A DNA stretch of 64,000 nt from Chloroflexota bacterium. GTDB taxonomy: Bacteria; Chloroflexota; Limnocylindria; P2-11E. The stretch is from positions 89,439 to 153,438 of the forward strand of contig VBDU01000071.1 of NCBI GenBank assembly GCA_005883625.1. The letters run 5' to 3'. Made by a program: the position numbers and the translations under genes. This document shows positions 5,836-41,991 of this stretch, piece after piece (the stretch's first letter is position 1; every line of letters starts with the position of its first letter). Under the pieces are notes generated by a model. It did no database searches. It was given only the letters and a program-made list of their open reading frames with translations, and was not told the origin of the DNA.

Positions 5836-6926
5836 AGCTCGCGCTCGCGCACGAGTACTTCAGCGCCCGCGGCGGCGCCGAGCGGGTCGTCGACGTGCTC
5901 CATGGGATGTGGCCCGAGGCGCCCGTCTACACGTTCTTCCACGACCGCCGCCGCTACGGCCGCCTCGACGGCTGGGATCTGCGGACGAGCTACCTGCAGC
6001 CCGTCGCGCTCGGTGGCGGCCTGCACCGGCTGCTGCTCCCGTTGTACCCGAACGCCGCTCGCTCGCTGCGCGTCGGAGCGGAGTTCGACGTGGCGCTCGT
6101 CTCGACGAGCGCGTTCATCAAGGGCCTCGCGCTCTCCGACCGCACCGTCGAGGTCGCGTACTGTCACTCGCCGACGCGGTACCTCTGGGACTGGGCGGAG
6201 CGCTATCTCGAGGAGGAGGTGCCGGCCCCGCTGCAGCCGGTCGTGCGCGAATTACAGGCCCGGCTGCGAGAGACCGATCTCGCGTTCGCGTCGCGCGTTG
6301 ACCGCTGGATCGCGAACTCGCGCGCGGTCGCGGAGCGCATCGCGCGGTACTACGGTCGCGAGAGCGAGATCGTGCATCCCGCCGTCGACGTCGACGCGTT
6401 CGCCGCGAGCGGCCAGCGCGGCGATTTCTGGCTCTTCGTCGGCCGGCTGTCGGCGTACAAACGGGCCGACCTCGCGGTGAGCGCGTTCAACGAGCTGGGC
6501 CTGCGCCTGCTCGTGGTCGGTGGGGGCCGCGAGCGCGACCGCCTCGAGCGCCTGGCCCACGAGAACGTGGTGTTCGCCGGCCGCGCCGACGACGCGACAC
6601 TCCGCGACCTCCTCGCGTCGGCGCGCGGCCTCGTCTTCCCGGCCGAGGACGACTTCGGGCTGGTGTGCGTCGAGGCGCTCGCCTCCGGTGCGCCCGTCGT
6701 CGCGCTCGCCGCGGGCGGCGCGCCGGACATCGTCCGCGACGGCGAGGACGGCGCGCTGTTCGCGCATCCCGAGGCCGGCGAGGTGGCGGACGCCGTCCTC
6801 CGTGTCGAACGCGGATCGTTCGATCCGCGCGCGTTGCGCGAGTCCGCGCGCAGGTTCGATGTGTCACGATTCCGCGACCGCGTGCGCGCGATCGTCGATG
6901 ACGCTTATCGCAAAGGAAGACCTTGA
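5832..6926 (+). CDS. GT4 (GT-B fold) glycosyltransferase
   Basis: EDDFGLVCVEALASGAPVVA is the GT1/GT4 EX7E-region motif. ATG overlaps the upstream stop (ATGA). Confidence 0.8.
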   Translation: MKLALAHEYFSARGGAERVVDVLHGMWPEAPVYTFFHDRRRYGRLDGWDLRTSYLQPVALGGGLHRLLLPLYPNAARSLRVGAEFDVALVSTSAFIKGLALSDRTVEVAYCHSPTRYLWDWAERYLEEEVPAPLQPVVRELQARLRETDLAFASRVDRWIANSRAVAERIARYYGRESEIVHPAVDVDAFAASGQRGDFWLFVGRLSAYKRADLAVSAFNELGLRLLVVGGGRERDRLERLAHENVVFAGRADDATLRDLLASARGLVFPAEDDFGLVCVEALASGAPVVALAAGGAPDIVRDGEDGALFAHPEAGEVADAVLRVERGSFDPRALRESARRFDVSRFRDRVRAIVDDAYRKGRP

Positions 6927-23581: not shown

Positions 23582-24053
23582 CTTCATCGCCGTCGCCGTC
23601 CTGCTCGCGGCGTGCGCGGGGAACTCGGCGGTGAGCCCGGCGACGGAGCGCGTCCCGTTCACCGACCACGGCACGACGCAGATGTCGGGCAACGACGCTG
23701 GGCCGCGCGTCGTGGTCGCGACGGATGCACAAAGCGGTGCCGCGCTCGCGTCGCTCCTACCGTCGGTGCCGTCCGCGCCGGACCGCGTCTACATCGGCGT
23801 CTTCGCCGGCTCGCAGCGCACGGGCGGCTACGCGCTAAAAGTCGACGCGATCGAGCGCACCGGCGATCGCCTGACGGTGCGGGCGACGTTCACCGCGCCG
23901 GCGCCGGGCGCGCTCACGATCCAGGTCCTCACCTCGCCGGCGCAGCTCGTGTCGATCCCGAGCGCGAGCGCCGCGAGCGTGCGCGAGGTCGTGCTCGTCG
24001 ATCAATCGGGCGCCGAGCGGGCGCGCGGGAGCGTGACACAATCGCGTCCCTGA
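23490..24053 (+). CDS. putative lipoprotein; start uncertain
   Basis: Hydrophobic segment plus the lipobox LLAAC-AG. The only canonical in-frame start is ATG 23490, which overlaps the upstream gene by 92 nt. Confidence 0.45.
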   Translation: MRPIKWVRRSAGSANGAFPRSSRTALRSACDFIAVAVLLAACAGNSAVSPATERVPFTDHGTTQMSGNDAGPRVVVATDAQSGAALASLLPSVPSAPDRVYIGVFAGSQRTGGYALKVDAIERTGDRLTVRATFTAPAPGALTIQVLTSPAQLVSIPSASAASVREVVLVDQSGAERARGSVTQSRP

Positions 24054-24054
24054 C

Positions 24055-26112
24055 GTGACCGACGAGAAGGGGGACGACGAAGCCCCGCGAATACCGTCCC
24101 TCGAAGAGCGCACCACAAAGTCGGGCCGGCTTCCCGGCAACCGGTACGTCAGGATCCACCACAGCAGCGGGTTCCGCCGGCGCGGCGGTCTCTACGTCGC
24201 CGAGGAGGAGGCGCTCCGCCCCGCGAACGCGGCGGGCCGCGTCTACGACGTGATCCGCCGCATCCTCTTCGGTCGACCCCTTTCGACCGAAGCGGAGGAG
24301 GGTGAGCGTCTCTCCGTCTTGACGGGCCTCGCGATCCTCGGCTCCGACAACATCTCCTCGAGCGCGTACGCGACGGAAGAGGCAATGCGCGTCCTCGCGC
24401 TCGCGGGGATCGGCGCGTTCGTTTTCACGACGCCCATCGCCGTGGCCGTCGTGGGGGTCCTCGCGATCGTCGTGCTCTCCCAGTCCCAGGTGATCCGCGC
24501 GTACCCGAACGGCGGCGGCAGCTACATCGTGACGAGCGACAACCTCGGGACGCTGCCCGGGCTCGTGGCGGCCGCCGCGCTCCTCATCGACTACGTCCTC
24601 ACGGTCGCGGTCTCGACGGCCGCCGGCGTCCAGGCGATCTCGAGCTTCTATCCCGAGCTGCACGCGTACGTCGTGCAGGTCGGGCTCGTGTTCATCGCGC
24701 TTCTCATGATCGGCAACCTCCGCGGCGTGCGCGAGGCCGGGATCATGTTCGCCGGCCCGACGTACGTCTACATCGCGTCGCTCGCGGCGCTCTTGCTCTA
24801 CGGGTTCTTCCGCGTCGCGACGGGCGACGTCCCGCCCGCCGCGCTGCCTCCGCTGCCGTTCGGCACCGAGGGCGAGGTGACGCTCGCGGGTCCGGTCGGC
24901 GCGCTTCTCATCCTGCGCGCGTTCGCCTCGGGATCCGTCGGCCTGACCGGGAGCGAGGCGATCGCGAACGGCGTGCCGAGCATGGAGAAGCCGGAGCCGC
25001 GGAACGCGACGATCACGCTCGTCATCATGGGCATCACGTTCGCCACGATCTTCCTCGGGCTCACGTTCCTCGCGCAGACCATCGGCACGATCCCAGATCG
25101 CTCCGAGGTCGAGACGCTCAACAGCCTGGTCACGCGGTCGCTCGTCGGGATCTCACCCTTCTACTACCTCGTCCAGGGATCGACCGCGATCCTGCTCGCC
25201 CTCGCCGCGAACACCGGGTTCACCGGGTTCCCGCGCCTCGCGTCGGTCCTCGCGAACGATCGCTTCATGCCGCGGCAGTTCGCCTACCGCGGCGAGCGCC
25301 TTGCCTTCTCGTTCGGGATCGTCGCCCTCGCGGTGGTGTCGGGCCTCGTCCTCGCCGCCCGCAACGGCAGCGTGACCGAGCTCATCCCCTTCTACACGAT
25401 CGGCGTGTTCCTCGCCTTCACGCTGTCGCAGAGCGGGCTTGTCCGCCGATGGCGGCGTCTGCGGGTCCACGGCTGGCAATGGCGCACGGGGGTCAACGCG
25501 CTTGGCGCGGTCGTCACCGGCGTCGTGCTCGTCGTCGTGCTGGTCGCGAAGTTCAAGGAGGGTGCCTGGCTCATCCTCGTCGCCGTCCCGCTCATCGTCG
25601 CGCTGCTCCTCGCGATCCACCGCCACTACCGGCAGATGCAGGACGCCCTCGTCATCGAGCGGCTCGACGACGAGGTGGCCGAGCCGAAGCCGCCCATCGT
25701 CATCGTGCCGGTGGGCCGCCTCGACCGCGCCGCCGCGCGGGCGATCGCGTTCGCCCGGTCGATCTCGCCGGCGGTGAAAGCGGTGCACGTCGCGACGAGC
25801 GAGGAGAGCGCCAACGAGTTCCGCGAGCGCTGGGAGCGCTGGAAGGGCAAGGTGCCCCTCGACATCATCGAGTCGCCGTACCGCTCGCTCGTGCCGCCGC
25901 TCCTGCGATACATCGACGACATCGACAAGCGCGACGCGCGTCCGATCACCGTCGTCCTCGCCTCGTTCGTCCCGCACAGCTGGTGGGAGTGGCTGCTACA
26001 CAGCCAGACCGCCCTCCGGCTGAAGGCGTCGCTCCTTTTCCGGCCGAACACGATCGTCGTCGACGTCCCCTACCACTTCGACCACGGGCACGTCCCGGAG
26101 CAGCCCCGATGA
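24055..26112 (+). CDS. APC-superfamily transporter, KimA-like (often annotated amino-acid permease), with USP-like C-terminal cytoplasmic domain
   Basis: 685 aa. GSDNISSSAYATEE...AYPNGGGSY...LIDYVLTVAVS...LAANTGFTGFPRLASVLANDRFMPR...C-terminal IVIVPVGRLDRAA...VHVATSEE...NTIVVDVPYHF. Confidence 0.7.
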   Translation: MTDEKGDDEAPRIPSLEERTTKSGRLPGNRYVRIHHSSGFRRRGGLYVAEEEALRPANAAGRVYDVIRRILFGRPLSTEAEEGERLSVLTGLAILGSDNISSSAYATEEAMRVLALAGIGAFVFTTPIAVAVVGVLAIVVLSQSQVIRAYPNGGGSYIVTSDNLGTLPGLVAAAALLIDYVLTVAVSTAAGVQAISSFYPELHAYVVQVGLVFIALLMIGNLRGVREAGIMFAGPTYVYIASLAALLLYGFFRVATGDVPPAALPPLPFGTEGEVTLAGPVGALLILRAFASGSVGLTGSEAIANGVPSMEKPEPRNATITLVIMGITFATIFLGLTFLAQTIGTIPDRSEVETLNSLVTRSLVGISPFYYLVQGSTAILLALAANTGFTGFPRLASVLANDRFMPRQFAYRGERLAFSFGIVALAVVSGLVLAARNGSVTELIPFYTIGVFLAFTLSQSGLVRRWRRLRVHGWQWRTGVNALGAVVTGVVLVVVLVAKFKEGAWLILVAVPLIVALLLAIHRHYRQMQDALVIERLDDEVAEPKPPIVIVPVGRLDRAAARAIAFARSISPAVKAVHVATSEESANEFRERWERWKGKVPLDIIESPYRSLVPPLLRYIDDIDKRDARPITVVLASFVPHSWWEWLLHSQTALRLKASLLFRPNTIVVDVPYHFDHGHVPEQPR

Positions 26113-28148
26113 CCGACGAAGAAAAGCCTGAGACCCCCTCGCTCGAAAAGCGCGTCACCAGCCACGGACGCCACGTCGGCGACCGCTACGTGCGGATCGT
26201 CCGCCCGGTCGGCAGCGGGCTCCGCGGGCACGGCGGTCGCTATCTCGCCACCGAGGAGACGATGGCGGCGCGGGGTCCGGTGGCACGCGCCCTCGAGCGC
26301 GTCGCGCAGCTCTTCATCGGCAAGCGGCTCGAATCCGAGGCCGAGGCCGAGGAGCGCGTCGGCGTCGCGACTGGGCTCCCCATCCTCGCCTCGGACAACG
26401 TCTCGTCATCCGCCTACGCGACCGAGGAGGCGATGCGGATCCTCGCCATCGCGGGCACGGCGGCGCTCGCGCTCACGATGCCCATCGCGCTCGCGGTCGT
26501 GTTCGTCCTGGCGATCGTGGTCCTGAGCGAGTCGCGGGTGATCCGGGCGTACCCGAACGGCGGTGGCAGCTACCTCGTCGCACGCGAGAACCACGGCGTC
26601 ATCGCCGGTCTCGTGGCAGCGTCAGCGCTGCTCATCGACTACGTGCTCACGGTGGCCGTTTCCACCGCCGCCGGCGTCGCCGCGATCTCGAGCTTCATGC
26701 CCGAGCTCCATTCACAGCGCGTCGAGATCGGGGTCGGCCTCATCGCGCTGCTGGCCATCGCGAACCTGCGCGGCGTGCGCGAGGCCGGAGTCCTCTTTGC
26801 GGCCCCGACCTACGCGTACATGGCCGCGATGTTCGCGCTCATCGCGTACGGCCTGTACCGGATCTCAACGGGCGATCTGCCCGCCGCGGTCACGCCGCCC
26901 GACCCGTTCGATCCCGCGGGCACCGCGCCCCTCGGGATCCTTCTCGTGCTCCGCGCGTTCGCATCCGGCTCCGTAGGCCTGACCGGCAGCGAAGCGATCG
27001 CGAACGGCGTGCCGAGCTTCCGCAGACCGGAGACACGGAACGCCGTGATCACCCTCGTGCTCATGGGGACGATCTTCGCCACGATCTTCATCGGCCTGAC
27101 CTTCCTGGTCACTCGCATCGGCATCCAGCCGGACCAGAGCGAGACCGAGACCCTGAACAGCATGCTCACGCGCTCGGTCGTGGGCGGCGGGACGCCGTTC
27201 TATCTCTTCGTTCAGCTTTCGACCGCCGTGATCCTCCTCCTCGCTGCGAACACCGGCTTCACCGGCTTCCCACGCCTCGCCTCTGTGCTCGCGAACGACC
27301 GGTTCATGCCGCGGCATTTCGCCGACGTCGGCTCGCGCCTCGCCTTCAGCACGGGGATCGCCTCTCTCGCGGCGCTTGCTGGCGTGATCCTCATTGCCTT
27401 CGACGGCAGCGTGAACAAGCTGGTGCCGCTCTACACGATCGGCGTGTTCCTCGCATTCACGCTCTCGCAATCCGGGCTGGTCCGGCGGTGGTGGCACCTC
27501 CGCAATCCCGGCTGGCGCGCGTCGATCGTGATCAACGGTTTTGGCACGGTCGTCACCGGCACGGTCTTGCTCGTGGTCGCGATCACGAAGTTCACGCTCG
27601 GGGCATGGATGGTCCTCATCCTCCTTCCCGTCCTCGTGGCGCTGCTTTACGCGGTCAACCGTCATTACCGAACGGTGCAGGACGCGCTCGTCCTCTCGGG
27701 CGGCGAGCAGCGCATCCCTGTGTTTGGCGCGCCGGTCGTCATCGTGCCCGTGGCGCGGCTCGACCGCGCAGCGATCCAAGCGCTGGCGTTCGCGCGCTCC
27801 GTCTCGCCGAACGTGAAAGCGGTCCACATCTCGACCTCGCGCGAGAGCGCTGACGAGTTCCGCGCGCGCTGGCGCCGGCTTGGGATCGAGATCCCCCTCG
27901 ACGTCGTCGAGTCGCCGTTCCGTTCGCTCGTCCCTCCGCTCCTCCGCTACATCGACGCGATCGACAAGTCGGACGACCGTCCCATTACCGTCGTCGTGAG
28001 CGAGTTCGTCCCGCGCCACTGGTGGGAGTGGCTCCTTCACAGCCAGACGGCGTTCCGCCTCAAGGCCGCGCTTCTCTTCCGGCCGAACACGATCGTGGTC
28101 GACGTGCCGTATCACTTTAGTGACACCGCCGACCTCACCCGGGGCTAG
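26109..28148 (+). CDS. second KimA-like APC-superfamily transporter (tandem paralog)
   Basis: ATGA overlap start; 679 aa; collinear with the upstream gene. Confidence 0.7.
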   Translation: MTDEEKPETPSLEKRVTSHGRHVGDRYVRIVRPVGSGLRGHGGRYLATEETMAARGPVARALERVAQLFIGKRLESEAEAEERVGVATGLPILASDNVSSSAYATEEAMRILAIAGTAALALTMPIALAVVFVLAIVVLSESRVIRAYPNGGGSYLVARENHGVIAGLVAASALLIDYVLTVAVSTAAGVAAISSFMPELHSQRVEIGVGLIALLAIANLRGVREAGVLFAAPTYAYMAAMFALIAYGLYRISTGDLPAAVTPPDPFDPAGTAPLGILLVLRAFASGSVGLTGSEAIANGVPSFRRPETRNAVITLVLMGTIFATIFIGLTFLVTRIGIQPDQSETETLNSMLTRSVVGGGTPFYLFVQLSTAVILLLAANTGFTGFPRLASVLANDRFMPRHFADVGSRLAFSTGIASLAALAGVILIAFDGSVNKLVPLYTIGVFLAFTLSQSGLVRRWWHLRNPGWRASIVINGFGTVVTGTVLLVVAITKFTLGAWMVLILLPVLVALLYAVNRHYRTVQDALVLSGGEQRIPVFGAPVVIVPVARLDRAAIQALAFARSVSPNVKAVHISTSRESADEFRARWRRLGIEIPLDVVESPFRSLVPPLLRYIDAIDKSDDRPITVVVSEFVPRHWWEWLLHSQTAFRLKAALLFRPNTIVVDVPYHFSDTADLTRG

Positions 28149-28160
28149 ACTCCCGCACTC

Positions 28161-28589
28161 ATGCACCCGAAGCGCATCCTCGTGGCGCTCGCCGGCTCGA
28201 GCGCCGACCCCGATGTGATCCGTCTCGTGGCCTCCATCGCCAAGCCGGGCCGGTCGCAGGCCATCGGCATCCACGTCATCGAGGTCCGCTGGAACCTGCC
28301 GCTCGACGCGGTCCTCGAGAACGAGCTCGACCGCGGCGAGGAGCTGCTCGACGGCGCGAAGAAGGTCGCCGAGCAAGCGGGGCTCGCGCTCGAGACCGAG
28401 ATGCTCCAGGCGCGCGAAGCGGCCGCGGCGATCATCGACACCGCGGTCGAGCGGCAATGCGACCTCATCGTCGTGGCGATGCCCTTCCGCAAGCGTTTAG
28501 GCAAGGTGTACATCGGCCGCACCGTGCAGAACGTGTACGTGAACGCGCCGTGCGCGGTCCTCGCGTATCGTCAGGAAGAGATCAAATGA
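28161..28589 (+). CDS. universal stress protein (UspA family)
   Basis: 142 aa; ILVALAGSSADPDVIRLVASIA...CDLIVVAMP. Confidence 0.85.
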   Translation: MHPKRILVALAGSSADPDVIRLVASIAKPGRSQAIGIHVIEVRWNLPLDAVLENELDRGEELLDGAKKVAEQAGLALETEMLQAREAAAAIIDTAVERQCDLIVVAMPFRKRLGKVYIGRTVQNVYVNAPCAVLAYRQEEIK

Positions 28590-29089
28590 ACGTCGTCATT
28601 GTCGGCTGCGGACGCGTCGGCGGCTTCCTCGCCGGGCTCCTCGACACCGAGGGTCACCACGTGAGCGTGGTGGACATCGCGTCCACGAGCCCGGCGCGCG
28701 CCGAGCGCGCCTGGTTCCAGCACCTGCCGTCGACGTTCAAAGGGGAGACGATCCTCGGCGACGGGACGGACCTCGAGATCCTCCGTCAGGCCGGCGTCGA
28801 GAAGGCCGACGCGCTCCTCGCCCTCACCGAGGGCGACAACCGCAACCTCATGGCGGCGCAGATCGCGCAGAAGATCTTCGGCGTGCGGCGAGTCGTTGCG
28901 AAGGTGAACGACCCCGTGCGCGCACAGATCTACCGCCGCCAGGGCATCGACACGTTCTCGCGCACGACGATCCTCGGTACCCTGCTCTTCGCGATGCTCA
29001 TGGAGGACCGCGAGGTCGGCGAGGTCCTCATCAAGAAGTCACTCGAGCACGAGAAGGAGCTCGCGCACGAGCCGGCGCCGGCGGGCTAG
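28586..29089 (+). CDS. TrkA-N (RCK N-terminal, NAD-binding) domain protein
   Basis: ATGA overlap start. MNVVIVGCGRVGGFLAGLL has the GxGxxG Rossmann motif. Confidence 0.8.
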   Translation: MNVVIVGCGRVGGFLAGLLDTEGHHVSVVDIASTSPARAERAWFQHLPSTFKGETILGDGTDLEILRQAGVEKADALLALTEGDNRNLMAAQIAQKIFGVRRVVAKVNDPVRAQIYRRQGIDTFSRTTILGTLLFAMLMEDREVGEVLIKKSLEHEKELAHEPAPAG

Positions 29090-29746
29090 ATGTACTTCAT
29101 CGTCGCCGGCGCCGGCGAGGTCGGATTCCACCTCGCGCAGGCTTTGCTCGAGGCGGGCCACGAGGTGACGGTCATCGAGGCGGATCGCCGGCGTGCGAGC
29201 TTCGTGCAGGAGAAGCTCGGCTCGATCGTGCTCAACGAAGCGGCGGACGAGGGCCGCGCGCAGATGGAGGCGGGCTGCTCCCGCGCCGACGCGCTCGTCG
29301 CGGTCACCGGCGACGACGCGAAGAACCTCGTCATCTGCCAGCTCGCGAAGCATCACTGCCACACGCCGCGCGTGATTGCTCGGGTGAACAACCCGAAGAA
29401 CGAGATCGTTTTCAAGACGCTCGGCATCGACGAGACGATCTCGTCCACGCGCGTGCTCATGAGCGTGATCGAGCAGGAGCTGCCCACCGGGGGCTTCCTG
29501 CCGCTCATGCCGCTCACCGGCTCGCAGCTCGAGCTCATCGAGGCCGAGATCGCGCCCGGCACGCCCGCCGCGGGGAGGACCGTGGGCGGTCTCAAATTGC
29601 CGAGCGGCGCGGTCGTGGGGGGCCTCGTCCGTCGCGGCAAGGTCGTGCATCCGCACGACGAGACGAAGCTCGAGGTCGGCGATCGCGTCATCGTCTTCGC
29701 GCCGACCGCCACCGAGGGCGAGGTCCGCAAAGCGCTCTTCGGCTAG
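29090..29746 (+). CDS. TrkA/KtrA-like K+ transport regulatory protein (RCK_N + RCK_C)
   Basis: MYFIVAGAGEVGFHLAQAL..., with C-terminal TrkA_C segment LIEAEIAPGTPAAGRTVGGLKLP...DRVIVFAP. Confidence 0.85.
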   Translation: MYFIVAGAGEVGFHLAQALLEAGHEVTVIEADRRRASFVQEKLGSIVLNEAADEGRAQMEAGCSRADALVAVTGDDAKNLVICQLAKHHCHTPRVIARVNNPKNEIVFKTLGIDETISSTRVLMSVIEQELPTGGFLPLMPLTGSQLELIEAEIAPGTPAAGRTVGGLKLPSGAVVGGLVRRGKVVHPHDETKLEVGDRVIVFAPTATEGEVRKALFG

Positions 29747-29784: not shown

Positions 29785-30783
29785 GTGTTGCGCGCCGCCC
29801 GCCTTGCGCTCGTCGCGTCGGCGGCCGCCTCGCTCGGCGTCGTCGCGGTCATCCTCACGCGCGCGAGCGCTGCCTCCCCGTACCTCCTGCTCTTCGGCCT
29901 CGCGGCCGCCGACTTCGTGGCGTCGGCGCGGACCCTTGAGCGGGACCGGCGCCGCGGAGTCCTGTTCGCCTGGGGTGGCGCGCTGTCGCTCGCGGGGATG
30001 GGAACGCTTGCCGGCCTCGGCGCCGGCGACGTGACGTTCCCCGCCGCCGCGCTCGGGATCGTGGCCGCGGTCCTCGCGTCGCTGGTGCCACCGTCGCGTC
30101 GCGTGCTCGTCGCGGTCGCGGTCTACGTCCTCGTCGGCATCGCGGTCAGCGCGCCCCGCCTTCCCGGGCTCCTGGCGTTCCCCTTCCTCGTGCCGAGTCT
30201 CCTCCTCTGGCCCCTCATGCTGGCGCTGGGCCCCGGCGCGCTCGCGATCTTCGCCGTCATCGGCTTGGGGATCGGCCTGACGGTGGCCGCGCTCGCGCCG
30301 GCGCTACCGGCACCGCGGCCGCGCCGGCCGCTCGCGCTCGTGGCCGGGCTCGTCGCCGCGGTCGCAGCCGATGCGATCGAGATCGCGCTGGCCGTCGCGC
30401 AGCCGCACACGAGCGCGCGGGCCGAGCTCGGCGTCCTCCCGCTCGCGGTCCTCTTCGTCGCGGGTGCGCTCTTCGGTGCGGGGGCCGTCCTCGCGATGAG
30501 CCGCGCGGGCGGCGGGCTGGTCGCGACCACCCTCGGTGGCGCGGTGCTCGTCTACGCGCTCTTCTCGCGGCCGACCGTGGAATGCTTCGGCAACGGCGTC
30601 GCGACCTCCGGCGGACCGTGGTGGTTGCCCGCGCTCGGTGCGCTCAGCTCGTCCGGTGGCGGGTCCGGGTCGTCGTCCGGCGGTCCCGGCGGTGTGGCGG
30701 GCACGATCAATCGGAGCGACGGCGTGACGATCACATACCGCTGCGAGGGCGATCGGCTCGTGGAGTTCGAGATCCGCCGCTAG
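29785..30783 (+). CDS. hypothetical polytopic membrane protein with Gly/Ser-rich linker and small C-terminal domain
   Basis: 332 aa with 8 or more hydrophobic helices, then SSGGGSGSSSGGPGG and a 30-aa tail. GTG start. Confidence 0.5.
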   Translation: MLRAARLALVASAAASLGVVAVILTRASAASPYLLLFGLAAADFVASARTLERDRRRGVLFAWGGALSLAGMGTLAGLGAGDVTFPAAALGIVAAVLASLVPPSRRVLVAVAVYVLVGIAVSAPRLPGLLAFPFLVPSLLLWPLMLALGPGALAIFAVIGLGIGLTVAALAPALPAPRPRRPLALVAGLVAAVAADAIEIALAVAQPHTSARAELGVLPLAVLFVAGALFGAGAVLAMSRAGGGLVATTLGGAVLVYALFSRPTVECFGNGVATSGGPWWLPALGALSSSGGGSGSSSGGPGGVAGTINRSDGVTITYRCEGDRLVEFEIRR

Positions 30784-31229
30784 ACGTGATACGGCACGTC
30801 GATGACGATCGTGTTCGGACGCGACACAAGGCGAAGTTTGAGCCGCAGCGCCGCCCGGTTGTGCAGGAGGTAGCTCCACCGGGCGCGAGGCACGACGCCC
30901 GACAGGACGATCGCGAGCGGCCGCGCCGGATCGCCATCGGTGAGGGTGTCGAGATGGGTCTCGAGCGCCTTCGCGGCATCGCAGCGCGATCTCACCACCA
31001 CGAGGTCCATCGCCGGTCCTGGATCGAGCCTCGTCCAGGAGCGCCGGATGCGCTCGGCTCCCGCGTCGTCATTCGTGACGTGCACGACCGAGACGTGCGC
31101 CGCGATGGAGCGCGCGTAGCCGAGCGCACGGATGGTGGGTCGATCGAGCCTCGCGATTGGAACCACGACGCGCATTCCGACGCGCCCCCGACGCAGCGCG
31201 CATTGTGAGGCGGGCGCGAGTGCTCCCAT
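30780..31229 (-). CDS. stand-alone USP-like domain homologous to the C-terminal cytoplasmic domain of the KimA-like transporters
   Basis: VVVPIARLDRPTIRALGYARSIAAHVSVVHV...PNTIVIDVPYHV aligns with IVIVPVGRLDRAAARAIAFARSISPAVKAVHV...PNTIVVDVPYHF of the genes at 24055 and 26109. Alternative internal start near 31175. Confidence 0.6.
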   Translation of the reverse strand: MGALAPASQCALRRGRVGMRVVVPIARLDRPTIRALGYARSIAAHVSVVHVTNDDAGAERIRRSWTRLDPGPAMDLVVVRSRCDAAKALETHLDTLTDGDPARPLAIVLSGVVPRARWSYLLHNRAALRLKLRLVSRPNTIVIDVPYHV

Positions 31230-31310
31230 CGTCGATCGAGAGTCCCCGACGCGCGCTCAACGGTGTGTCAACGACATGCCTTCGCCCCTTAACGTTCGCT
31301 CAAAACGTCG

Positions 31311-32033
31311 CTAGAGGTCGTCGGAGCGGAAGCGGTAGCCCACGCCGGGCTCGGTCTCGAGATGCTTCGGCGCCTGCGGGTCGTCTTCGATCTTGCGCCG
31401 CAGGCGCGCGACGTACACGTGGAGGTAGTGCGACTCGTCGCCGTAATCGGGCCCCCACACCTGCTGCAGCAGCATCCGGTCGGTGAGGACTTTGTTCGGG
31501 TTCGTGATGAACACCTTGAGGAGGTCGTACTCGGTGGGCGTCAGGTGCACCACGCGGCCGGCGACCGAGACGTCGCGGCGCTCGAGGTCGATGACGAGAT
31601 CGCCGCTGCGGATCCGCGGCTCCGCGCCCGCGTTCGGGCGTGCGACGTGCCGCAGCGCGACGCGGATGCGGGCGAGGAGCTCGTCGATCCCGAACGGCTT
31701 CGTCATGTAGTCGTCCGCGCCGCTGTCGAGCGCCGTCACCTTGTCCTCTTCGCCGCCACGCGCCGAGAGCACGATGATCGGCGTTCCCGATCGCTCTCGG
31801 ATGTGCCGCACGACCTCGAAGCCGTCGCCGTCGGGAAGGTTGAGGTCGAGGACGACGAGGTCGGGCGGGCGCCGGTCGTACGTCGCCTTCGCGTCGGCGC
31901 CGGTCTCCGCGGTCTCGACCTGAAAGCCGTGGCCGCGGAGATTTGTCCGCAGCGTGCGCACCATCGCCGGCTCGTCGTCGACCACGAGGAGGCGCGCGCC
32001 GGCGGGCTCGGCGCGGGCAAGGTCGGGTCTCAC
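31311..32033 (-). CDS. OmpR-family response regulator (KdpE-like)
   Basis: GTG overlaps the kinase stop (GTGA on the minus strand). LLVVDDEPAMV...LVVLDLNLPDGDG...winged helix YVARLRRKIE. The long Arg-rich upstream extension of track ORF 31311..33347 is excluded. Confidence 0.85.
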   Translation of the reverse strand: MRPDLARAEPAGARLLVVDDEPAMVRTLRTNLRGHGFQVETAETGADAKATYDRRPPDLVVLDLNLPDGDGFEVVRHIRERSGTPIIVLSARGGEEDKVTALDSGADDYMTKPFGIDELLARIRVALRHVARPNAGAEPRIRSGDLVIDLERRDVSVAGRVVHLTPTEYDLLKVFITNPNKVLTDRMLLQQVWGPDYGDESHYLHVYVARLRRKIEDDPQAPKHLETEPGVGYRFRSDDL

Positions 32034-33556
32034 CTCGCGCTTACCGGCAGCGTGAACACGACCCGGGTCCCCTCCGGCACCTCCCGGTCGACCCAGATCG
32101 ATCCGCGGTGCGCCTCCACAAGGCGCTTCGCGATCGCCAGCCCGAGTCCGACGCCGCGCGTGCGCAGGCCCTGCCGGTCGAGGCGCACGAACGGCGCGAA
32201 GATGCGCTCCGCGTCCGCCTCCGGGATCCCGGGGCCGTGGTCGGTCACCGCGAAACGGACGTCGCCGTTCGCGGGAGAGACGCTGATCCCGATCGCGGAT
32301 CCGGGCGGCGAGAACTTCGCGGCATTCTCGACGAGATTGGCGAGGACCTGCTGGATCTCGACATAGTCGAGCTCGACAGGCGGCAGGTCGTCCGGCACTT
32401 CGAGGTCCACAGGATGTCCCGCGGTCACCGGCCGCAGCCGTCCCGCGACGTCCTCGACGAGGGCTCCCACGTCGTGCCAGGCCTTGTGCGGCACCAGGCT
32501 CCCGTTCTCGATGCGCGAAAGGTCGAGGAGATTGCCGACGACGCGGTCGAGACGCAGCGCCTCGTCCCGGATCGCCCCGACGAATTCGTCGCGCTCGCGT
32601 TCGGTCCAGGCGACGTCGCGCTGCAGCAGGCTGCCCGCCGAGGCGAGGATCGACGCGAGCGGCGTCCGGAGCTCGTGCGAGACCGCGTGGAGGAGCTCGG
32701 TCTTGAGGTCGTCGGCGCGGCGCAGCACCTCGGTCTCCAAGGCGTCCTTGCGGAACCGCGCGCGCTCCATCGTGACGCCGAGCTGCGCCGCACCGATCGC
32801 GAGGAGACGCTCGTCGGCCGGTCCGAGCTCGCGCGCGTCGGTGCGCGCGAGGAGGAGAAGCCGGCCGACGTGCTTTCCGGAGACCGTGATCGGCACGAGG
32901 TGCACCCGCCGCTCGCGGCCACGTCCCGGCAGCCGGGCGCCGACCAGGCGGATCCGGCGCGACGGTCCGCGGCGGGGATCCATGAGCCGCAGCTCCGTGC
33001 CGGTCGCGTGCAGGGCCTCGCGCGAGGGCTCGTCGCGCGCGGCGACGGCGGACCGCTCGAGCATCCCGGGATCGGACTCGATCGCGACCGCGTCGAGGTC
33101 CAGCGCCGCGCGGAAGTGCTCCGCGACCGCCGCGAGCGCCCGCTCGAGGTCGGGATCGGCCATGAGCAGCGCCGCCTCGTACAGGAGCGTCGCTTCGCGC
33201 TCGCGCGCCTTCGCCTCCTCGGCGCGCGCGCGCTCGCGCGCGGCCAGTGTCCCCGTCACGACCGCGGTCATGAGGAAGAGCGCGAGCGAGAACAGCTCTT
33301 CGGCGTCCGCCACGACGAGCTGGTGGGTCGGTGGCACGAAGAACCAATCAAAGGTGAGGAAGGCGAGCAGGCTCGCCGCGATCGCGGCGGCCCGCCCGAA
33401 CGCGACGGCCACGAGGAGCACCGCGACGAGATACAGCATGGAGATGTTCGCGAGCTGCGTCCTGCCGACGACGAGCCCGATGAACACGCTCGTGAGGGCG
33501 ACGCCCACGATCGCGGCGACGTACGGGATGAGACGTCGCATGGCTCGATCTCGCAT
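32030..33556 (-). CDS. KdpD-like sensor histidine kinase lacking the N-terminal KdpD/Usp sensor region (DUF4118 TM - GAF - HisKA - HATPase)
   Basis: LTFDWFFVPP is the KdpD TM-domain signature. H-box AVSHELRTPL with N, G1 and G2 boxes intact. Starts at ATG MRDRAM; the track ORF upstream extension is low complexity. Confidence 0.8.
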   Translation of the reverse strand: MRDRAMRRLIPYVAAIVGVALTSVFIGLVVGRTQLANISMLYLVAVLLVAVAFGRAAAIAASLLAFLTFDWFFVPPTHQLVVADAEELFSLALFLMTAVVTGTLAARERARAEEAKAREREATLLYEAALLMADPDLERALAAVAEHFRAALDLDAVAIESDPGMLERSAVAARDEPSREALHATGTELRLMDPRRGPSRRIRLVGARLPGRGRERRVHLVPITVSGKHVGRLLLLARTDARELGPADERLLAIGAAQLGVTMERARFRKDALETEVLRRADDLKTELLHAVSHELRTPLASILASAGSLLQRDVAWTERERDEFVGAIRDEALRLDRVVGNLLDLSRIENGSLVPHKAWHDVGALVEDVAGRLRPVTAGHPVDLEVPDDLPPVELDYVEIQQVLANLVENAAKFSPPGSAIGISVSPANGDVRFAVTDHGPGIPEADAERIFAPFVRLDRQGLRTRGVGLGLAIAKRLVEAHRGSIWVDREVPEGTRVVFTLPVSAR

Positions 33557-33557
33557 C

Positions 33558-34886
33558 TTAGACCGCGCTCGCTTGCTCGACGCCCGGCAGCGCGAGTCCC
33601 GCCGCCACGCTGGTGAACGCGGCGGCGTCGCGGGTGGACGCGTCGGGCAGGAGCGACCGCATGAGCGCGCGGAAGGCCGGGATCGCGCTCGAGCCGCCGG
33701 TATACACGATCTCCCCGATCCCGCCGGCCTCGAGCCCGGCGACATCGAGCACCTCATGGACGAGCGCGGCGGTCTCGTCGAGCAGCGGTGCGACGAGCCG
33801 CTCGAAGCGGCCGCGCACGATCCGGGCGTCCACGTCGACCGCGGCGTGGTGGTACGAGAGGATCGCGCTTGCCTGCGTCGAGAGCTCGCACTTGGTCGCG
33901 TCGGCGGCGCGGAAGATCTCATAGCCGAGCTGCAATTCGATCGCGCTGCGCAGTGCGGCAAGCTCGCGCTTCGGCGCGCCCGCGCGCACGAGGTCGTCGA
34001 GCGCGTCGAGGAGCGGCTTTTCGTTCAGCGCCGAGAGCGCGTGCCAGTCGCGGAGCGCGTTCACGATGTAGCGCGGCAGCGCGAGCCGCTTGGGACCCCA
34101 CCGCGCGCGCGAGCCGAGGAACGGCGCGATCGCATCGTCGATGACGAGCTCCGTCGCGCGGTCGCCGCCGATCGGGCCGCCCGCGGTCGCCAGGACGCGT
34201 AGCCCGCGCGCGTCGCGCCGCACGACGCAGAGGTCGAGCGTTCCGCCGCCGAAGTCGAACACCAGGCTCGTGCCCTCGGCCGTGGCCGCGGCGTGCGCGG
34301 CGGCGATGGGCTCCGGCACGAAGTGGACCTCAGAAAAGCCGGCGAGCTCCGCGGCCACCCGCAGACGCGCCGTCGCGCGGTCGTCGGCTCCAGGCGGTCC
34401 GCTGAAGCGCACAGGTCGACCGAGCGTGACCGCCTCAGGGGCGATGCCGACAAGCTCTCTTGCGCGGGCGCGCACGTGCGCAAGGACCAGGGCGATCAGA
34501 TCTTCAAGGCCTTTCGCATCCCCAAAGACGTTCGTCCGTGTGTCGAGCGGATCCCCGAGAAAGGTCTTGAGCGCCTGGAAGAGCCGGCCGGGGGCGCTCG
34601 TGTCCGTGAGGATGTAGGCCTCGAGGCTCTTGTGGGTCCAGTCCGTGGAGGGGAGGCGGATGCCGAGCATCTGCACTTGACGCCGAAGCGGTCCGCGGTC
34701 GCGGTTGTCCGACAGATACTCGTCGATGGCCCGTCGGCCGACGATCGGCGTGCCGTCTCGCCGGATGTACAGGACCGTCGGCAGCGTTTCACCCGCGATC
34801 GGGTCAAGCGGCAGCACGCGGACAGCGGCGCCGTCGAACGCGGCGAGCGACGTGTTGGACGTGCCGAAATCCAGACCGAAGCGCAC
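33558..34886 (-). CDS. Hsp70-family ATPase-domain-only protein (short DnaK-like)
   Basis: 442 aa with GLDFGTSNTSLA...VFDFGGGTLD...VYTGGSSAIPA, the actin-fold phosphate / adenosine motifs. No substrate-binding domain. Confidence 0.7.
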   Translation of the reverse strand: MRFGLDFGTSNTSLAAFDGAAVRVLPLDPIAGETLPTVLYIRRDGTPIVGRRAIDEYLSDNRDRGPLRRQVQMLGIRLPSTDWTHKSLEAYILTDTSAPGRLFQALKTFLGDPLDTRTNVFGDAKGLEDLIALVLAHVRARARELVGIAPEAVTLGRPVRFSGPPGADDRATARLRVAAELAGFSEVHFVPEPIAAAHAAATAEGTSLVFDFGGGTLDLCVVRRDARGLRVLATAGGPIGGDRATELVIDDAIAPFLGSRARWGPKRLALPRYIVNALRDWHALSALNEKPLLDALDDLVRAGAPKRELAALRSAIELQLGYEIFRAADATKCELSTQASAILSYHHAAVDVDARIVRGRFERLVAPLLDETAALVHEVLDVAGLEAGGIGEIVYTGGSSAIPAFRALMRSLLPDASTRDAAAFTSVAAGLALPGVEQASAV

Positions 34887-35057
34887 GGGCCGACCAGAGT
34901 ACGGCCCAGCTGCCGGCCAAGCAGGCCGCCGCCCGAAACCCTCTCTACGCGGCGGTATCCCCGTCCTCGGTCGGCCGGGGACCCCTCCGCCGCGCGGGGG
35001 CCCTCGGTCGGCGGCCTGCTCCGCCGCTCCCGGGCCTTCTGTCGAGGAGGAAGAGTC

Positions 35058-35086
35058 TTGACAACGGCATTGTTAGGTTTTATAGA
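35058..35086 (+). promoter_or_regulatory. sigma-A-type promoter for the hspR operon; the predicted TSS coincides with the GTG start (leaderless)
   Basis: TTGACA (35058-63), 17-nt spacer, TATAGA (35081-86). GTG start at 35093. Confidence 0.45.
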
Positions 35087-35092
35087 AAGAAG

Positions 35093-35491
35093 GTGGCCTT
35101 AGGACGTCGACCCGTCTACGTCATCTCGATCGCCGCGGGCCTGGCCGGCTGTCACCCGCGCACGCTCCGGATCTACGAGGAGGAAGGCCTGCTCGAGCCG
35201 GTGCGCACGCAGACCAACATACGGCTCTACTCCGACGACGACCTGGAGCGCGTTCGCGCCATCCGGTACCTCACGCAGATCCGGGGCGTGAACCTTGCGG
35301 GCGTCAAGCTCCTGCTCCAGCTCCGCGACGCGACCGAGCTCCTTCGCGAGATCGGCGAGGAGCTCGCGACGCAGGACGAGGCCCCGGCCGCGCAGGCGGC
35401 GGTCTATCAGGAACGGGGCGACGAGACGGCGAACGACGCGGGGCGCCCGCGGCCACGAAATCGCTCGCGCCGAAATGGCGTTGAGCTCTAA
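35093..35491 (+). CDS. hspR: MerR-family heat-shock repressor HspR
   Basis: VYVISIAAGLAGCHPRTLRIYEEEGLLEPVRTQTNIRLYSDDDLERVRAIRYLTQ resembles the HspR HTH. Confidence 0.75.
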   Translation: MALGRRPVYVISIAAGLAGCHPRTLRIYEEEGLLEPVRTQTNIRLYSDDDLERVRAIRYLTQIRGVNLAGVKLLLQLRDATELLREIGEELATQDEAPAAQAAVYQERGDETANDAGRPRPRNRSRRNGVEL

Positions 35492-35506
35492 AAGAGGAGG
35501 CAACCT

Positions 35507-36009
35507 ATGACGCTCGCTCTCTTCAGCCCCAGCACCGACGTCGTGTCTCTCCGCGAGGCCATGGATCGTCTCTTCGAGGACAGCTTCACCCGGCCGAACG
35601 GGTGGTCCGGTCTGGTTTCCGGCCAGGTCGGCGTGCCGGTGGACCTCTGGGAGACGAAGGACGCATACCACCTTCGCGCGGACCTGCCCGGTCTGACCGC
35701 GGAGGACATCGAGATCAACGCCACGAGCGACACGATCACGTTCGGCGGCGAGATCAAGGCGCAGGCGGACGCCACGGAGGACAGCTGGCTCCGTCAGGAG
35801 CGGCGCGCCGGGAAGTTCCAGCGCGCCTTCACCCTGCCGGTGCAGATCGACCCGAACAAGGTCGAGGCGAAGTTCACGAACGGCGTTCTGGAGCTCGTGG
35901 TCCCGAAGGCCGAGAGCACCAAGCCGCGGACGATCAAGATCAACGCGAATAGCACAACAAGTAGCCAAGTCACGCAAGCAGTCAAGTCGCTTAAGGAAAG
36001 AGAGCTCGA

Positions 36010-36013
<4 letters not shown>
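35507..36013 (+). CDS. Hsp20/alpha-crystallin-family small heat-shock protein
   Basis: 168 aa with an ACD domain (...AYHLRADLPGL...FTLP...NGVLELVVPK). RBS AAGAGGAGG. Confidence 0.9.
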
Positions 36014-38442
<2,429 letters not shown>

Positions 38443-38455
38443 CCGGAGGACCGCC

Positions 38456-39444
38456 ATGCCGGTCGAGTACAAGGACTACTACAAGATCCTCGGGGTGGGA
38501 AAGAACGCCACCACCGAGGACATCAAGAAGGCGTACCGCAAGCTCGCGCGCCAGCACCACCCGGACGTCAACAAGAAGCCGGAGGCGGAGCGCCGCTTCA
38601 AGGAGATCAACGAGGCCAACGAGGTCCTCAGCGATCCCTCCAAGCGCAAGCGCTACGACACCGTGGGTCCGGACTGGGAGCGCTACGCCTCGGGCATGGG
38701 CGGTCAGCCTGGTGGGGGGTCGGGATTCCATTGGGTGTACAACGGGCCGCCCGGCGCGAATCCCTTCGGCACCGACGCGGCCGGGTTCTCCGACTTCTTC
38801 CGGACGCTGTTCGGCGACGCCGGCAACGGCGGATTCGCCGACGCCGACGATCTGCTCGGCCGGACGCGGACGCGGACGCGCTCGCGAGCGCGCGCGCGAC
38901 CGGGCGAGGACGTGGAGGCCGAGGTCGAGGTCACGCTCGCCGAGGCGTACAAGGGGACCGAGCGCGTCGTCGAGATCGCGCGCGAGAACGGCGGCGGCCC
39001 GCGACGGCTCAGCGTCAAGATCCCGGTGGGCGTCCGCGACGGGCAGCGCATCCGGCTCGCGGGTCAGGGCCTTCCCGGTTCGGGCGGCGGCGCGTCGGGC
39101 GATCTCTACCTGCGCGTCCGCGTGAAGCCGCACCCCTTCTTCACGCGCGACGGGGACGACCTCCGCGCCGAGCTGCCGGTCGCGCTGCACGAGGCCCTGC
39201 TCGGTGGCGAGGTCACCGTCCCCACGCTGAAGGGGCGGGTCACGCTTCGCATCCCGCCCGAGACACAGAACGGGCGCGTCATCCGGCTCGCCGGCCAGGG
39301 GATGCCCCGCACGACCGGCGGCTTTGGCGACTTGTATCTGACGATCAAAGTAATCCTGCCGACGAAGCTGTCGGAAAAGGAGCGGGAGATGGCGAAGGAG
39401 CTCGCCGCCGCGCGCGGGAACGAGAACGTCAGGAGTCATCTTCT

Positions 39445-39448
<4 letters not shown>
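38456..39448 (+). CDS. J-domain chaperone CbpA/DnaJ-like (no zinc finger)
   Basis: YYKILGV...HPD (J-domain), a G/F-rich region and C-terminal DnaJ_C domains. RBS GGAGGA. Confidence 0.85.

Positions 39449-41991
<2,543 letters not shown>

Follow-up and report, generated by a model that had tools for sequence, protein, structure and literature searches.

A stand-alone KimA-type cytoplasmic domain behind a KdpDE-like two-component system in soil Chloroflexota: probable origin from a third kimA gene

Introduction

In the DNA of an uncultured soil Chloroflexota, a small gene lies behind the genes of a KdpDE-like two-component system and close to a cluster of potassium uptake genes, and the question is what this gene encodes, where it came from and what its product may do. 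The whole stretch analysed, 64,000 nucleotides of contig VBDU01000071.1 (positions 89,439 to 153,438 of the forward strand; GenBank assembly GCA_005883625.1), is called the window, and all positions are counted within it. The gene, an open reading frame (ORF) of 149 codons at 30780-31229 on the minus strand, encodes a free copy of the cytoplasmic domain of the potassium transporter KimA. KimA is among the main potassium importers of Gram-positive-type bacteria that are controlled by cyclic di-adenosine monophosphate (c-di-AMP), and its cytoplasmic domain has been studied only within the transporter. The features on which the argument depends are as follows.

30780-31229, minus strand: stand-alone KimA-type cytoplasmic domain gene (149 aa), a highly probable remnant of a kimA3 paralogue
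31245-31304, minus strand: direct repeats GTTGAS-N5-GTTGAS with an 11-bp period, a putative regulator site and promoter region inherited from kimA3
31311-32033, minus strand: OmpR-family response regulator, KdpE-like (Pfam Response_reg and Trans_reg_C)
32030-33541, minus strand: histidine kinase (503 aa) that corresponds to KdpD's C-terminal half (Pfam DUF4118, HisKA, HATPase)
24055-26112, plus strand: KimA1, full-length K+/H+ symporter of the KimA/KUP type (685 aa; Pfam AA_permease_2, K_trans)
26109-28148, plus strand: KimA2, full-length KimA orthologue (PDB 6S3K, E 4e-133 over the full length)

The explanation that we place first, with moderate confidence, is that the gene derives from a third KimA paralogue, kimA3, and that its product is a soluble, regulator-induced modulator of potassium uptake. 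The parts of this explanation differ in firmness: the origin and the regulatory context are highly probable, and the specific mode of action set out below is tentative.

The product as a free KimA domain

The original prediction, made from the sequence before any of the present comparisons, had seen in the product a free-standing copy of the C-terminal cytoplasmic domain of both KimA-like permeases, and this was borne out. Residues 21-149 of the product matched residues 549-675 of KimA1 with 42% identity (E 9e-25) and the corresponding part of KimA2 with 43% identity (E 6e-30) in composition-corrected BLASTP, and the product alone matched residues 473-604 of Bacillus subtilis KimA in PDB 6S3K (E 4.7e-9, phmmer). 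By these alignments the similarity to the permease C-termini is homology and not shared composition, which the prediction had itself asked about. Note that only KimA2 was searched against PDB, and KimA1 was assigned through its 64% identity to KimA2. The first 20 residues of the product form a linker without counterpart. The LeuT-fold membrane domain with its 12 transmembrane (TM) helices and its K+ site is not present in the product, and tblastn found no remnant of it, only 81 nt separating the ORF from the regulator gene.

Scans of the product against Pfam and NCBIfam with E values up to 0.01 gave no family, Usp (PF00582) included, and the KimA cytoplasmic domain therefore has no model in those libraries. 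When the domain profile was aligned by hhalign with the window's own universal stress protein (USP), listed below, the probability was 0.2%, that is, no relationship was seen. The USPs of the UspFG type carry an ATP-binding motif, G-x2-G-x9-G(S/T), after β4; on inspection, this motif was not found after β4 of the product, where the segment LSGVVPRARWSYLLHNRAAL contains one glycine. The fold, however, is shared: the product has a parallel five-stranded sheet with four flanking helices, the α/β HUP fold of the USPs, although the USP domain of KdpD is structurally no closer to it than generic USPs or PPAT. The term USP-like in the original prediction is thus correct at the level of the fold only and does not hold for the sequence.

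Spurious long ORFs are common in the window, which has a GC content of ~71%, and genes were therefore chosen by the GC content of their codon positions; the ORF at 30780-31229 gave 0.73/0.52/0.82, which is coding-like. It is uninterrupted over its 149 codons, with a second in-frame ATG at 31175 from which a 131-aa product would start, and the complete 149-codon ORF was present undisrupted in at least nine independent metagenome contigs from different samples. Public calls for this single intact ORF (P0001, P0160-P0173) have lengths of 76, 85, 128, 131 and 149 aa, the 76-aa call being the commonest (at least 39 contigs). A reading of the 76-aa "variants" in the 90% cluster as truncations was rejected, these being gene-caller choices on undisrupted ORFs. 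The stand-alone-domain proteins are named "hypothetical protein" at NCBI, and the annotation of these calls of 76 to 149 aa is corrected here to that of a stand-alone KimA-type domain gene. A leaderless transcript was considered for the gene and dropped, a Shine-Dalgarno-like GAGG/GGGGA being located 8-13 nt 5' of the start codon in most loci. No description of a stand-alone KimA domain was found in the literature searched.

Origin from a third kimA gene

The window proteins were mapped by tblastn onto 35 fetched loci of related DNA, which belongs to uncultured Chloroflexota, mostly labelled Candidatus Limnocylindria. In these loci, a kimA-kimA-usp-trkA-trkA cluster and an operon of Hsp70-like, kinase and regulator genes recur together, and it is the gene after the regulator that varies. 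A full-length KimA3 follows the regulator in seven loci (L005, L008, L011, L014, L015, L016 and L028), and the cytoplasmic domain only follows it in the window and in L004, L012, L018, L021, L023, L031 and L032, as well as in the contigs that encode P0007 and P0141.

The stand-alone domains form one group with the kimA3-type domains of L005, L008 and L028 in a neighbour-joining tree (bootstrap 42-48). This group also holds the non-kimA3 copies L030_K1 and L013 and excludes the co-resident KimA1 and KimA2, and the kimA3 domains of L011, L014, L015 and L016 are placed elsewhere in the tree. The L012 stand-alone copy is sister to the kimA3 of L028 with a bootstrap of 89. In identity, the stand-alone domains are closer to the kimA3 domains (54-56%) than to KimA1/2 (42-43%).

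The deletion scar can be read at the junctions. In L012 it is SPDLVQR|MAVPQVIVPVARLDR, the kimA3 counterpart in L028 being SPDLVQRHVVRGR...(membrane domain)...PLPRMAVPHVIVPVARLDR, and the loss amounts to 526 codons, in frame. The window product begins with M-G-A-L, matching EDAL, the linker after TM helix 12 of kimA3; the start codon was thus joined here to the linker. Another junction, M|LPRLAVPQVVVP, is found in P0007, and those of P0006 and P0012 differ again. Altogether, at least four distinct in-frame junctions each retain the start codon and the domain, and since they differ among lineages, the membrane domain was lost through several independent in-frame deletions. As judged from the junctions, the tree and the gene order, the stand-alone gene in the window is a kimA3 remnant left after in-frame deletion of ~540 codons, comprising the N-terminus and the whole membrane domain.

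Additional forms of the module were observed. In P0037 (184 aa), a KimA-type cytoplasmic domain directly follows residues 1-48 of a response-regulator receiver domain, which looks like the result of a deletion from inside the regulator gene to a point in kimA3. In L013 (4031-5575), trkA2 is followed by a KimA truncated at its N-terminus (TM residues ~336-530 and the cytoplasmic domain), and L034 (7826-8123) contains a frameshifted domain remnant, the kinase and regulator being missing; both are further stages of kimA3 erosion. An alternative layout is seen in L020 and L029, where kimA1-kimA2-usp-trkA-trkA come after the kinase and regulator genes on the same strand and the repeat array stands before kimA1, and another in L030, where the two-component system is divergent from kimA1 and a perfect repeat is located at 6233.

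The repeat array upstream of the gene

The stand-alone gene is on the same strand as the regulator gene, and the 81-nt spacer between them holds the array GTTGAS-N5-GTTGAS, consisting of two direct-repeat pairs 32 bp apart. Within its 64 kb, the window has a single perfect match (31256-31272), which is located 26 nt upstream of the ATG at 31229; weaker overlapping or degenerate matches are found at 31245 and 31288 (distal pair 31288-31304). In 18 related loci, this array is likewise found after the regulator gene. With at most one mismatch, 38 matches were counted on both strands of ~1 Mb of loci, 29 of them on the regulator strand within the 170 nt after the regulator gene (0.3% of the sequence); because the motif had been derived from these same regions, the count shows specificity and is no independent test.

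Between the proximal repeat and the start codon, the distance is 23-26 nt in five truncated genes (window, L004, L018, L021 and L023) and in five full-length ones (kimA3 in L011, L014, L015 and L016; kimA1 in L029), and this shared spacing makes the ATG at 31229 the positional equivalent of the ancestral kimA3 start. A periodicity of 11 bp is typical of the binding sites of OmpR/PhoB-family regulators, and the KdpE-like regulator probably controls a promoter at the array, which would then be its operator. No terminator-like site was found between the regulator gene and the stand-alone gene, and a scan of 30500-31600 for consensus promoters and terminators was empty. The expression of the gene from the kinase/regulator operon, as predicted originally, fits with the common strand and the short distance to the regulator gene; at the same time, the gene is probably not merely the tail of this operon, the array being directly upstream of it.

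With up to two mismatches, the motif was found neither 5' of kimA1 (~23900-24055) nor 5' of the Hsp70-like gene (34887-35092) of the window, and control of those operons is therefore not indicated in this genome. A related repeat, GTTGAG-N5-GTTTAG, which is absent from the window, is present on the opposite strand at the 5' end of kimA1 in L005 (9248), L027 (3088), L028 (12814) and L031 (7078); this suggests that the same regulator may also control the kimA1-kimA2-usp-trkA operon in some lineages.

Conserved residues and possible mode of action

In the mechanism that we propose, activation of the two-component system, presumably by a potassium or osmotic signal, would lead to binding of the KdpE-like regulator to the repeats, and the soluble domain would be made on this activation as the local output of the system. 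The product would dimerise through its conserved β5/C-terminal edge (NTIVIDVPYHV) as KimA domains do; KimA dimers form a 10-stranded sheet across the β5 edge (PDB 6S3K; PMC10284832). The soluble domain would then contact the cytoplasmic domains of KimA1 and KimA2 as a decoy or accessory subunit, altering their gating and hence potassium uptake, or it would modulate the TrkA-type proteins in trans, and it would be neither a classical c-di-AMP receptor nor a kinase module. Cross-talk with the transporters, one of the two roles proposed in the original prediction, is plausible.

The residues retained were compared with the 63 columns for which 52 full-length domains show a conservation of at least 80%. 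The window copy keeps 41 of the 63, and the recently truncated copies of L012 and P0007 keep 58. Among the elements kept in the window copy are β1-α1 (VVPIARLDR...ALGYARS), His50, the RW of helix 2, W100, Trp118, the RLKLRL helix and the β5/C-terminal RPNTIVIDVPYHV (RPNT-V-DVPYH). The SPYRxLxxPLL segment, conserved at 83-100% in the 52 full-length domains, was lost; residues 534-538 of 6S3K, which belong to this segment, are disordered. Also lost was the EF before Pro114 in the β4 loop, by which the equivalent of Phe568 (90% conserved in the 52 domains) became Val.

The c-di-AMP pocket of KimA includes Pro479, Ala481, Val506, Phe568, His579, Asn580, Gln581 and Ser/Thr582, with Phe568 delimiting the pocket and the Gln and Ser/Thr of the HxQ(S/T) motif contacting the phosphate (PMC10284832). 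The window copy keeps the equivalents of Pro479, Ala481, Val506, His579 and Asn580. Its HxQ(S/T) motif reads HNRA, and that of L004 reads QNRA, so that Gln581, conserved at 100%, is replaced by Arg, and Ser/Thr582, conserved at 87%, by Ala. The contributions of TM helix 12 and Arg337 to the site are absent by construction. Preservation of the fold and the sheet edge together with erosion of the pocket points to protein contacts rather than to canonical c-di-AMP binding, and the ligand site of the stand-alone domain may be altered.

The best surviving alternative, which we nevertheless regard as unlikely, is that c-di-AMP, or a different adenine nucleotide, is still bound by the freed domain, which on induction would buffer or relay this messenger, for instance by lifting the inhibition that c-di-AMP exerts on KimA1/2 and on the TrkA/KtrA-type proteins. 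Arg337 of the membrane domain strengthens c-di-AMP binding and is not essential (PMC10284832). The five retained pocket residues and the β1-α1 signature ARLDR are compatible with such binding, and nucleotides are bound by HUP-fold relatives, the USP domain of KdpD included. KimA1 and KimA2 retain Arg337 (in the FMPR motif, as noted for KimA1) and HSQT, and c-di-AMP control is therefore plausible in this organism. Against a receptor, however, stands the identity of the residues lost, since Gln581, Ser/Thr582 and Phe568 are precisely the pocket positions that most or all of the 52 full-length domains share. In other stand-alone lineages the motif has decayed further (QNRA, YDQS, AGLG, VNLD), and the stacking residues Val457 and Leu461 of TM helix 12 are missing along with Arg337. 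Moreover, no c-di-AMP cyclase was seen in the window, a genome-wide search for one not having been made, and the Rfam scan of the whole window gave nothing, including a ydaO-type c-di-AMP riboswitch before kimA or before the stand-alone gene.

Selection, divergence and decay

Ratios of non-synonymous to synonymous substitution rates (dN/dS) were estimated by the Nei-Gojobori method, and neutrality was assessed by a binomial test. Between the stand-alone genes of the window and L004, dN/dS was 0.166 at a dS of 0.61 (45.5 synonymous and 26.5 non-synonymous differences; neighbouring genes 0.06-0.34), and between those of L021 and L018 it was 0.138 at a dS of 0.72 (0.064 for the KimA2 cytoplasmic domain of the same pair). 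Both pairs depart from neutrality with p ~1e-10. Each pair shares its deletion junction, and this divergence has therefore accumulated after the truncation. We consider it likely that 30780-31229 is a functional gene.

The opposite interpretation, that the ORF is a non-functional leftover of kimA3 kept open by GC-rich DNA and on its way to loss, is improbable, more so than nucleotide reception. It is favoured by the recurrence of truncations and by the decay products found in relatives (the L034 frameshift, the L026 loss, the P0004/P0008 deletions and the P0037 fusion), by the fast amino-acid change with loss of family-invariant motifs, by the GC content at third codon positions (0.82 against ~0.92 in neighbouring genes) and by the disagreement of gene callers about the extent of the gene. 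A dN/dS of 0.14-0.17 in two independent pairs at a post-truncation dS of 0.6-0.7 is, however, at odds with a relic, and no frameshift and no more than seven in-frame gaps were seen in lineages whose amino-acid identity is as low as 33-46%. The gene has kept its start codon and the repeat array upstream of it, and each of the distinct in-frame junctions, at least four, preserved the start codon and the domain. In the window copy, neither a disrupted frame nor a neutral pattern was found; disrupted variants do occur in some relatives.

The explanation by a selected, regulator-induced modulator of potassium uptake has its own difficulties, which weigh against it. At deeper nodes of the tree, bootstrap values are modest (42-69%). 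The repeat motif was derived where it was counted, and its function as a regulator site is deduced from periodicity and position only. Free domains would be poor competitors against the tethered, domain-swapped domains of KimA1/2, and the linker, the main dimer interface in KimA, is poorly conserved (8/18 identical between the window and L004), its model being of low confidence. Whereas the cytoplasmic domains of full-length paralogues gave a dN/dS of 0.04-0.07 in five compared pairs and 0.12-0.22 in the rest, that of the stand-alone domains is two to three times the value of most transporter-attached domains, which means that the constraint is relaxed; between the window and L008, dN was 0.40 for the stand-alone domain versus 0.08 for the KimA2 domain, an approximately fivefold faster change. 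Finally, deletions of ~250-330 bp in P0004 and P0008 (89-94% identity; mapped to window 30555-31229) remove the 3' half of the gene, the resulting frame entering the antisense of the 3' end of the neighbouring membrane-protein gene, and, as already mentioned, the remnant in L034 is frameshifted and the whole module is gone from L026, so that loss is tolerated.

The window and L004 also differ in how this segment diverged relative to its surroundings. Their flanking genes are 97-100% identical in protein and ~98-100% in DNA, whereas the segment 30780-31310 has only 60-87% nucleotide identity, and dS is 0.61 for the stand-alone gene versus 0.03-0.1 for the flanking genes. Within the compared stretch 30620-31310, the stand-alone gene with its spacer, the only part in which the two strains differ by 13-40% at the nucleotide level, looks like an allele imported by recombination.

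The truncated kinase and its possible partners

The kinase was predicted to lack a USP domain of its own, and this was confirmed. It aligns to positions 402-883 of the 895 of the NCBIfam KdpD profile (E 7e-67; 226 bits against a cut-off of 1123), and in Pfam and NCBIfam scans neither the KdpD N-terminal domain (PF02702) nor a USP domain was found, DUF4118 beginning at residue 7. The protein is called as 503 aa in metagenome contigs too. For the regulator, the best NCBIfam model was KdpE (E 5.9e-75, below the equivalog cut-off). kdpFABC was not found among the genes examined around the locus, where the adjoining targets are kimA-type genes, and the KdpDE-like system has apparently been rewired to them. 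The first gene of the operon is the following.

33558-34886, minus strand: Hsp70/YegD-like ATPase (Pfam HSP70; NCBIfam PRK11678 molecular chaperone, E 6e-36)

In the window, this Hsp70-like gene ends 16 nt 5' of the kinase start, and it is directly 5' of the kinase in all fetched loci of the convergent layout whose DNA extends there (window, L001, L004, L008, L011, L012, L014, L015, L021, L023, L028 and L032). No Hsp70-like match was found beside the kinase in L016, L029 and L030, and in L031 the copy is further away. The gene persists in L026 and L034, where the kinase and regulator were lost. The Hsp70/YegD-like ATPase is a candidate accessory or sensor partner of the truncated kinase.

The other role proposed in the original prediction was that the product substitutes in trans for the missing USP domain, docking on the kinase and tuning its activity, possibly by c-di-AMP. 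The common strand and close spacing of the three genes, the absence of the USP and N-terminal domains from the kinase and two precedents favour this: the USP domain of Staphylococcus aureus KdpD binds c-di-AMP (PMC4686210, PMC8214093), and free UspC acts on Escherichia coli KdpD (PMC2714519). UspC, however, works through the USP domain of KdpD itself, which is absent here. The same kinase is paired with a full-length KimA3 and no free domain in seven loci (L005, L008, L011, L014, L015, L016 and L028), and free domains are also absent from L020 and L029, with kimA1-kimA2 downstream of the regulator, and from the divergent L030; the kinase therefore needs no such domain in trans. Additionally, in two near-identical strains the kinase has 99% identity, as against only 77-82% for the stand-alone gene; the kinase stayed unchanged while its supposed partner was exchanged for a divergent allele, which speaks against close co-adaptation of the two. 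Since the domain descends from a transporter and not from KdpD, has no sequence relation to USPs and is no nearer in structure to the KdpD USP domain than to generic USPs or PPAT, and since the Hsp70/YegD-like ATPase directly 5' of the kinase is a better and more conserved candidate for a sensor in trans, this role is very improbable.

Related proteins, known systems and implications

Only nine relatives of the product were found in a word-indexed protein search, versus 4057 matches in an exhaustive profile search. Many short matches among the latter were fragments beginning inside TM helix 12, and shortness alone is therefore no evidence for a stand-alone gene. Two complete-looking stand-alone KimA-type domains were nevertheless observed elsewhere: P0097 (L041 6001-6507), in the order HSP20, DUF308, domain, ECF sigma factor gene, and P0053 (L038 2966-3388), beside IS1 transposase genes. 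Neither is adjoined by a KimA gene or a two-component system. Moreover, P0010, P0014, P0021 and P0023 (~280-330 aa) consist of two tandem KimA-type cytoplasmic domains with no detectable membrane domain and may represent pseudo-dimers joined covalently; for P0014, the contig examined (L036) was too short to show the gene context.

The closest known system is the cytoplasmic domain of KimA (B. subtilis YdaO; PDB 6S3K, 8B70, 8B71). The window product differs from it in lacking the membrane domain, the domain-swap tether and the contributions of TM helix 12 and Arg337, in the replacement of Gln581 by Arg, Ser/Thr582 by Ala and Phe568 by Val, and in the loss of the SPYRxL loop; moreover, its gene follows those of a two-component system, and the window gave no c-di-AMP riboswitch. 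From the USP domain of S. aureus KdpD (PDB 7JI4) and from free UspC acting on E. coli KdpD, the product is separated by its different, transporter origin and by the absence of detectable sequence relation; in addition, the kinase of the window lacks the USP on which UspC acts, and relatives with the same kinase do without the free domain. TeaD of the TRAP transporter TeaABC (PDB 3HGM) is a canonical ATP-binding USP (Pfam Usp), not derived from a domain of its transporter. The C-terminal regulatory domains of KCC/NKCC (PDB 6VW9, 6NPL) are eukaryotic, always fused to the transporter and without sequence similarity to the product.

Soluble RCK domains (MthK, Kch, KtrA/TrkA) offer a general likeness, in that a free cytoplasmic regulatory domain exists beside membrane proteins carrying or needing it, in the context of potassium uptake and with assembly by domain-domain contacts likely. 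The folds are, however, unrelated (RCK versus HUP). The soluble RCK copies of MthK and Kch come from an internal start in the same gene, whereas the window copy is a separate gene that arose by deletion of the membrane domain in a paralogue.

The locus thus presents the KimA domain as a lone gene that is under selection, arose by in-frame excision, several times independently, and has retained a KdpDE-like control region. Several ideas that can be tested follow from it: that soluble KimA domains are trans-acting regulators of potassium uptake; that systems of the KdpD-C-half/KdpE type control kimA-type genes, not kdpFABC, through a GTTGAS-N5-GTTGAS operator; and that the SPYRxL loop and the HxQT/EF pocket are needed only with the membrane domain attached. 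A bolder proposal, to which we give less credence than to the mode of action outlined above, is a repeated, selected "liberation" of the domain in soil Chloroflexota, whereby the KdpDE-like system that once induced KimA3 now induces only the soluble domain, a new trans-regulator of KimA/TrkA uptake. If this were true, the liberated domain would act, for example, by pairing with KimA domains in mixed dimers or as a sensor of another nucleotide, and P0097, P0053 and P0010/P0014 would be members, together with it, of one unrecognised family of soluble regulators.

Other genes around the locus

The remaining genes of the plus-strand potassium uptake cluster and the gene that separates it from the stand-alone gene are listed below.

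28161-28589, plus strand: canonical universal stress protein (Pfam Usp, E 5e-15)
28586-29089, plus strand: TrkA_N (RCK) protein of 167 aa (Pfam TrkA_N)
29090-29746, plus strand: TrkA/KtrA-like protein with TrkA_N and TrkA_C (Pfam)
29785-30783, plus strand: Ala/Leu-rich polytopic membrane protein seen in the translation, without a Pfam match

Start and stop codons overlap as ATGA between kimA1 and kimA2 (26109-26112) and between usp and the first trkA gene (28586-28589), which implies that translation is coupled inside the potassium uptake operon. No tRNA genes were found in the window. The membrane-protein gene at 29785-30783 is convergent with the stand-alone gene, their stop codons overlapping. 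Among the loci first compared, only the closest relatives, L003 and L004, have it, L031 containing a fragment of 76 aa; in the near-identical contigs L043 and L045-L048 there is also a 332-aa call for it. On the far side of the module, a heat-shock cluster (MerR-family regulator, HSP20, Lon, DnaJ and ClpB) at 35093-41991 on the plus strand is divergent from the Hsp70-like/kinase/regulator operon.

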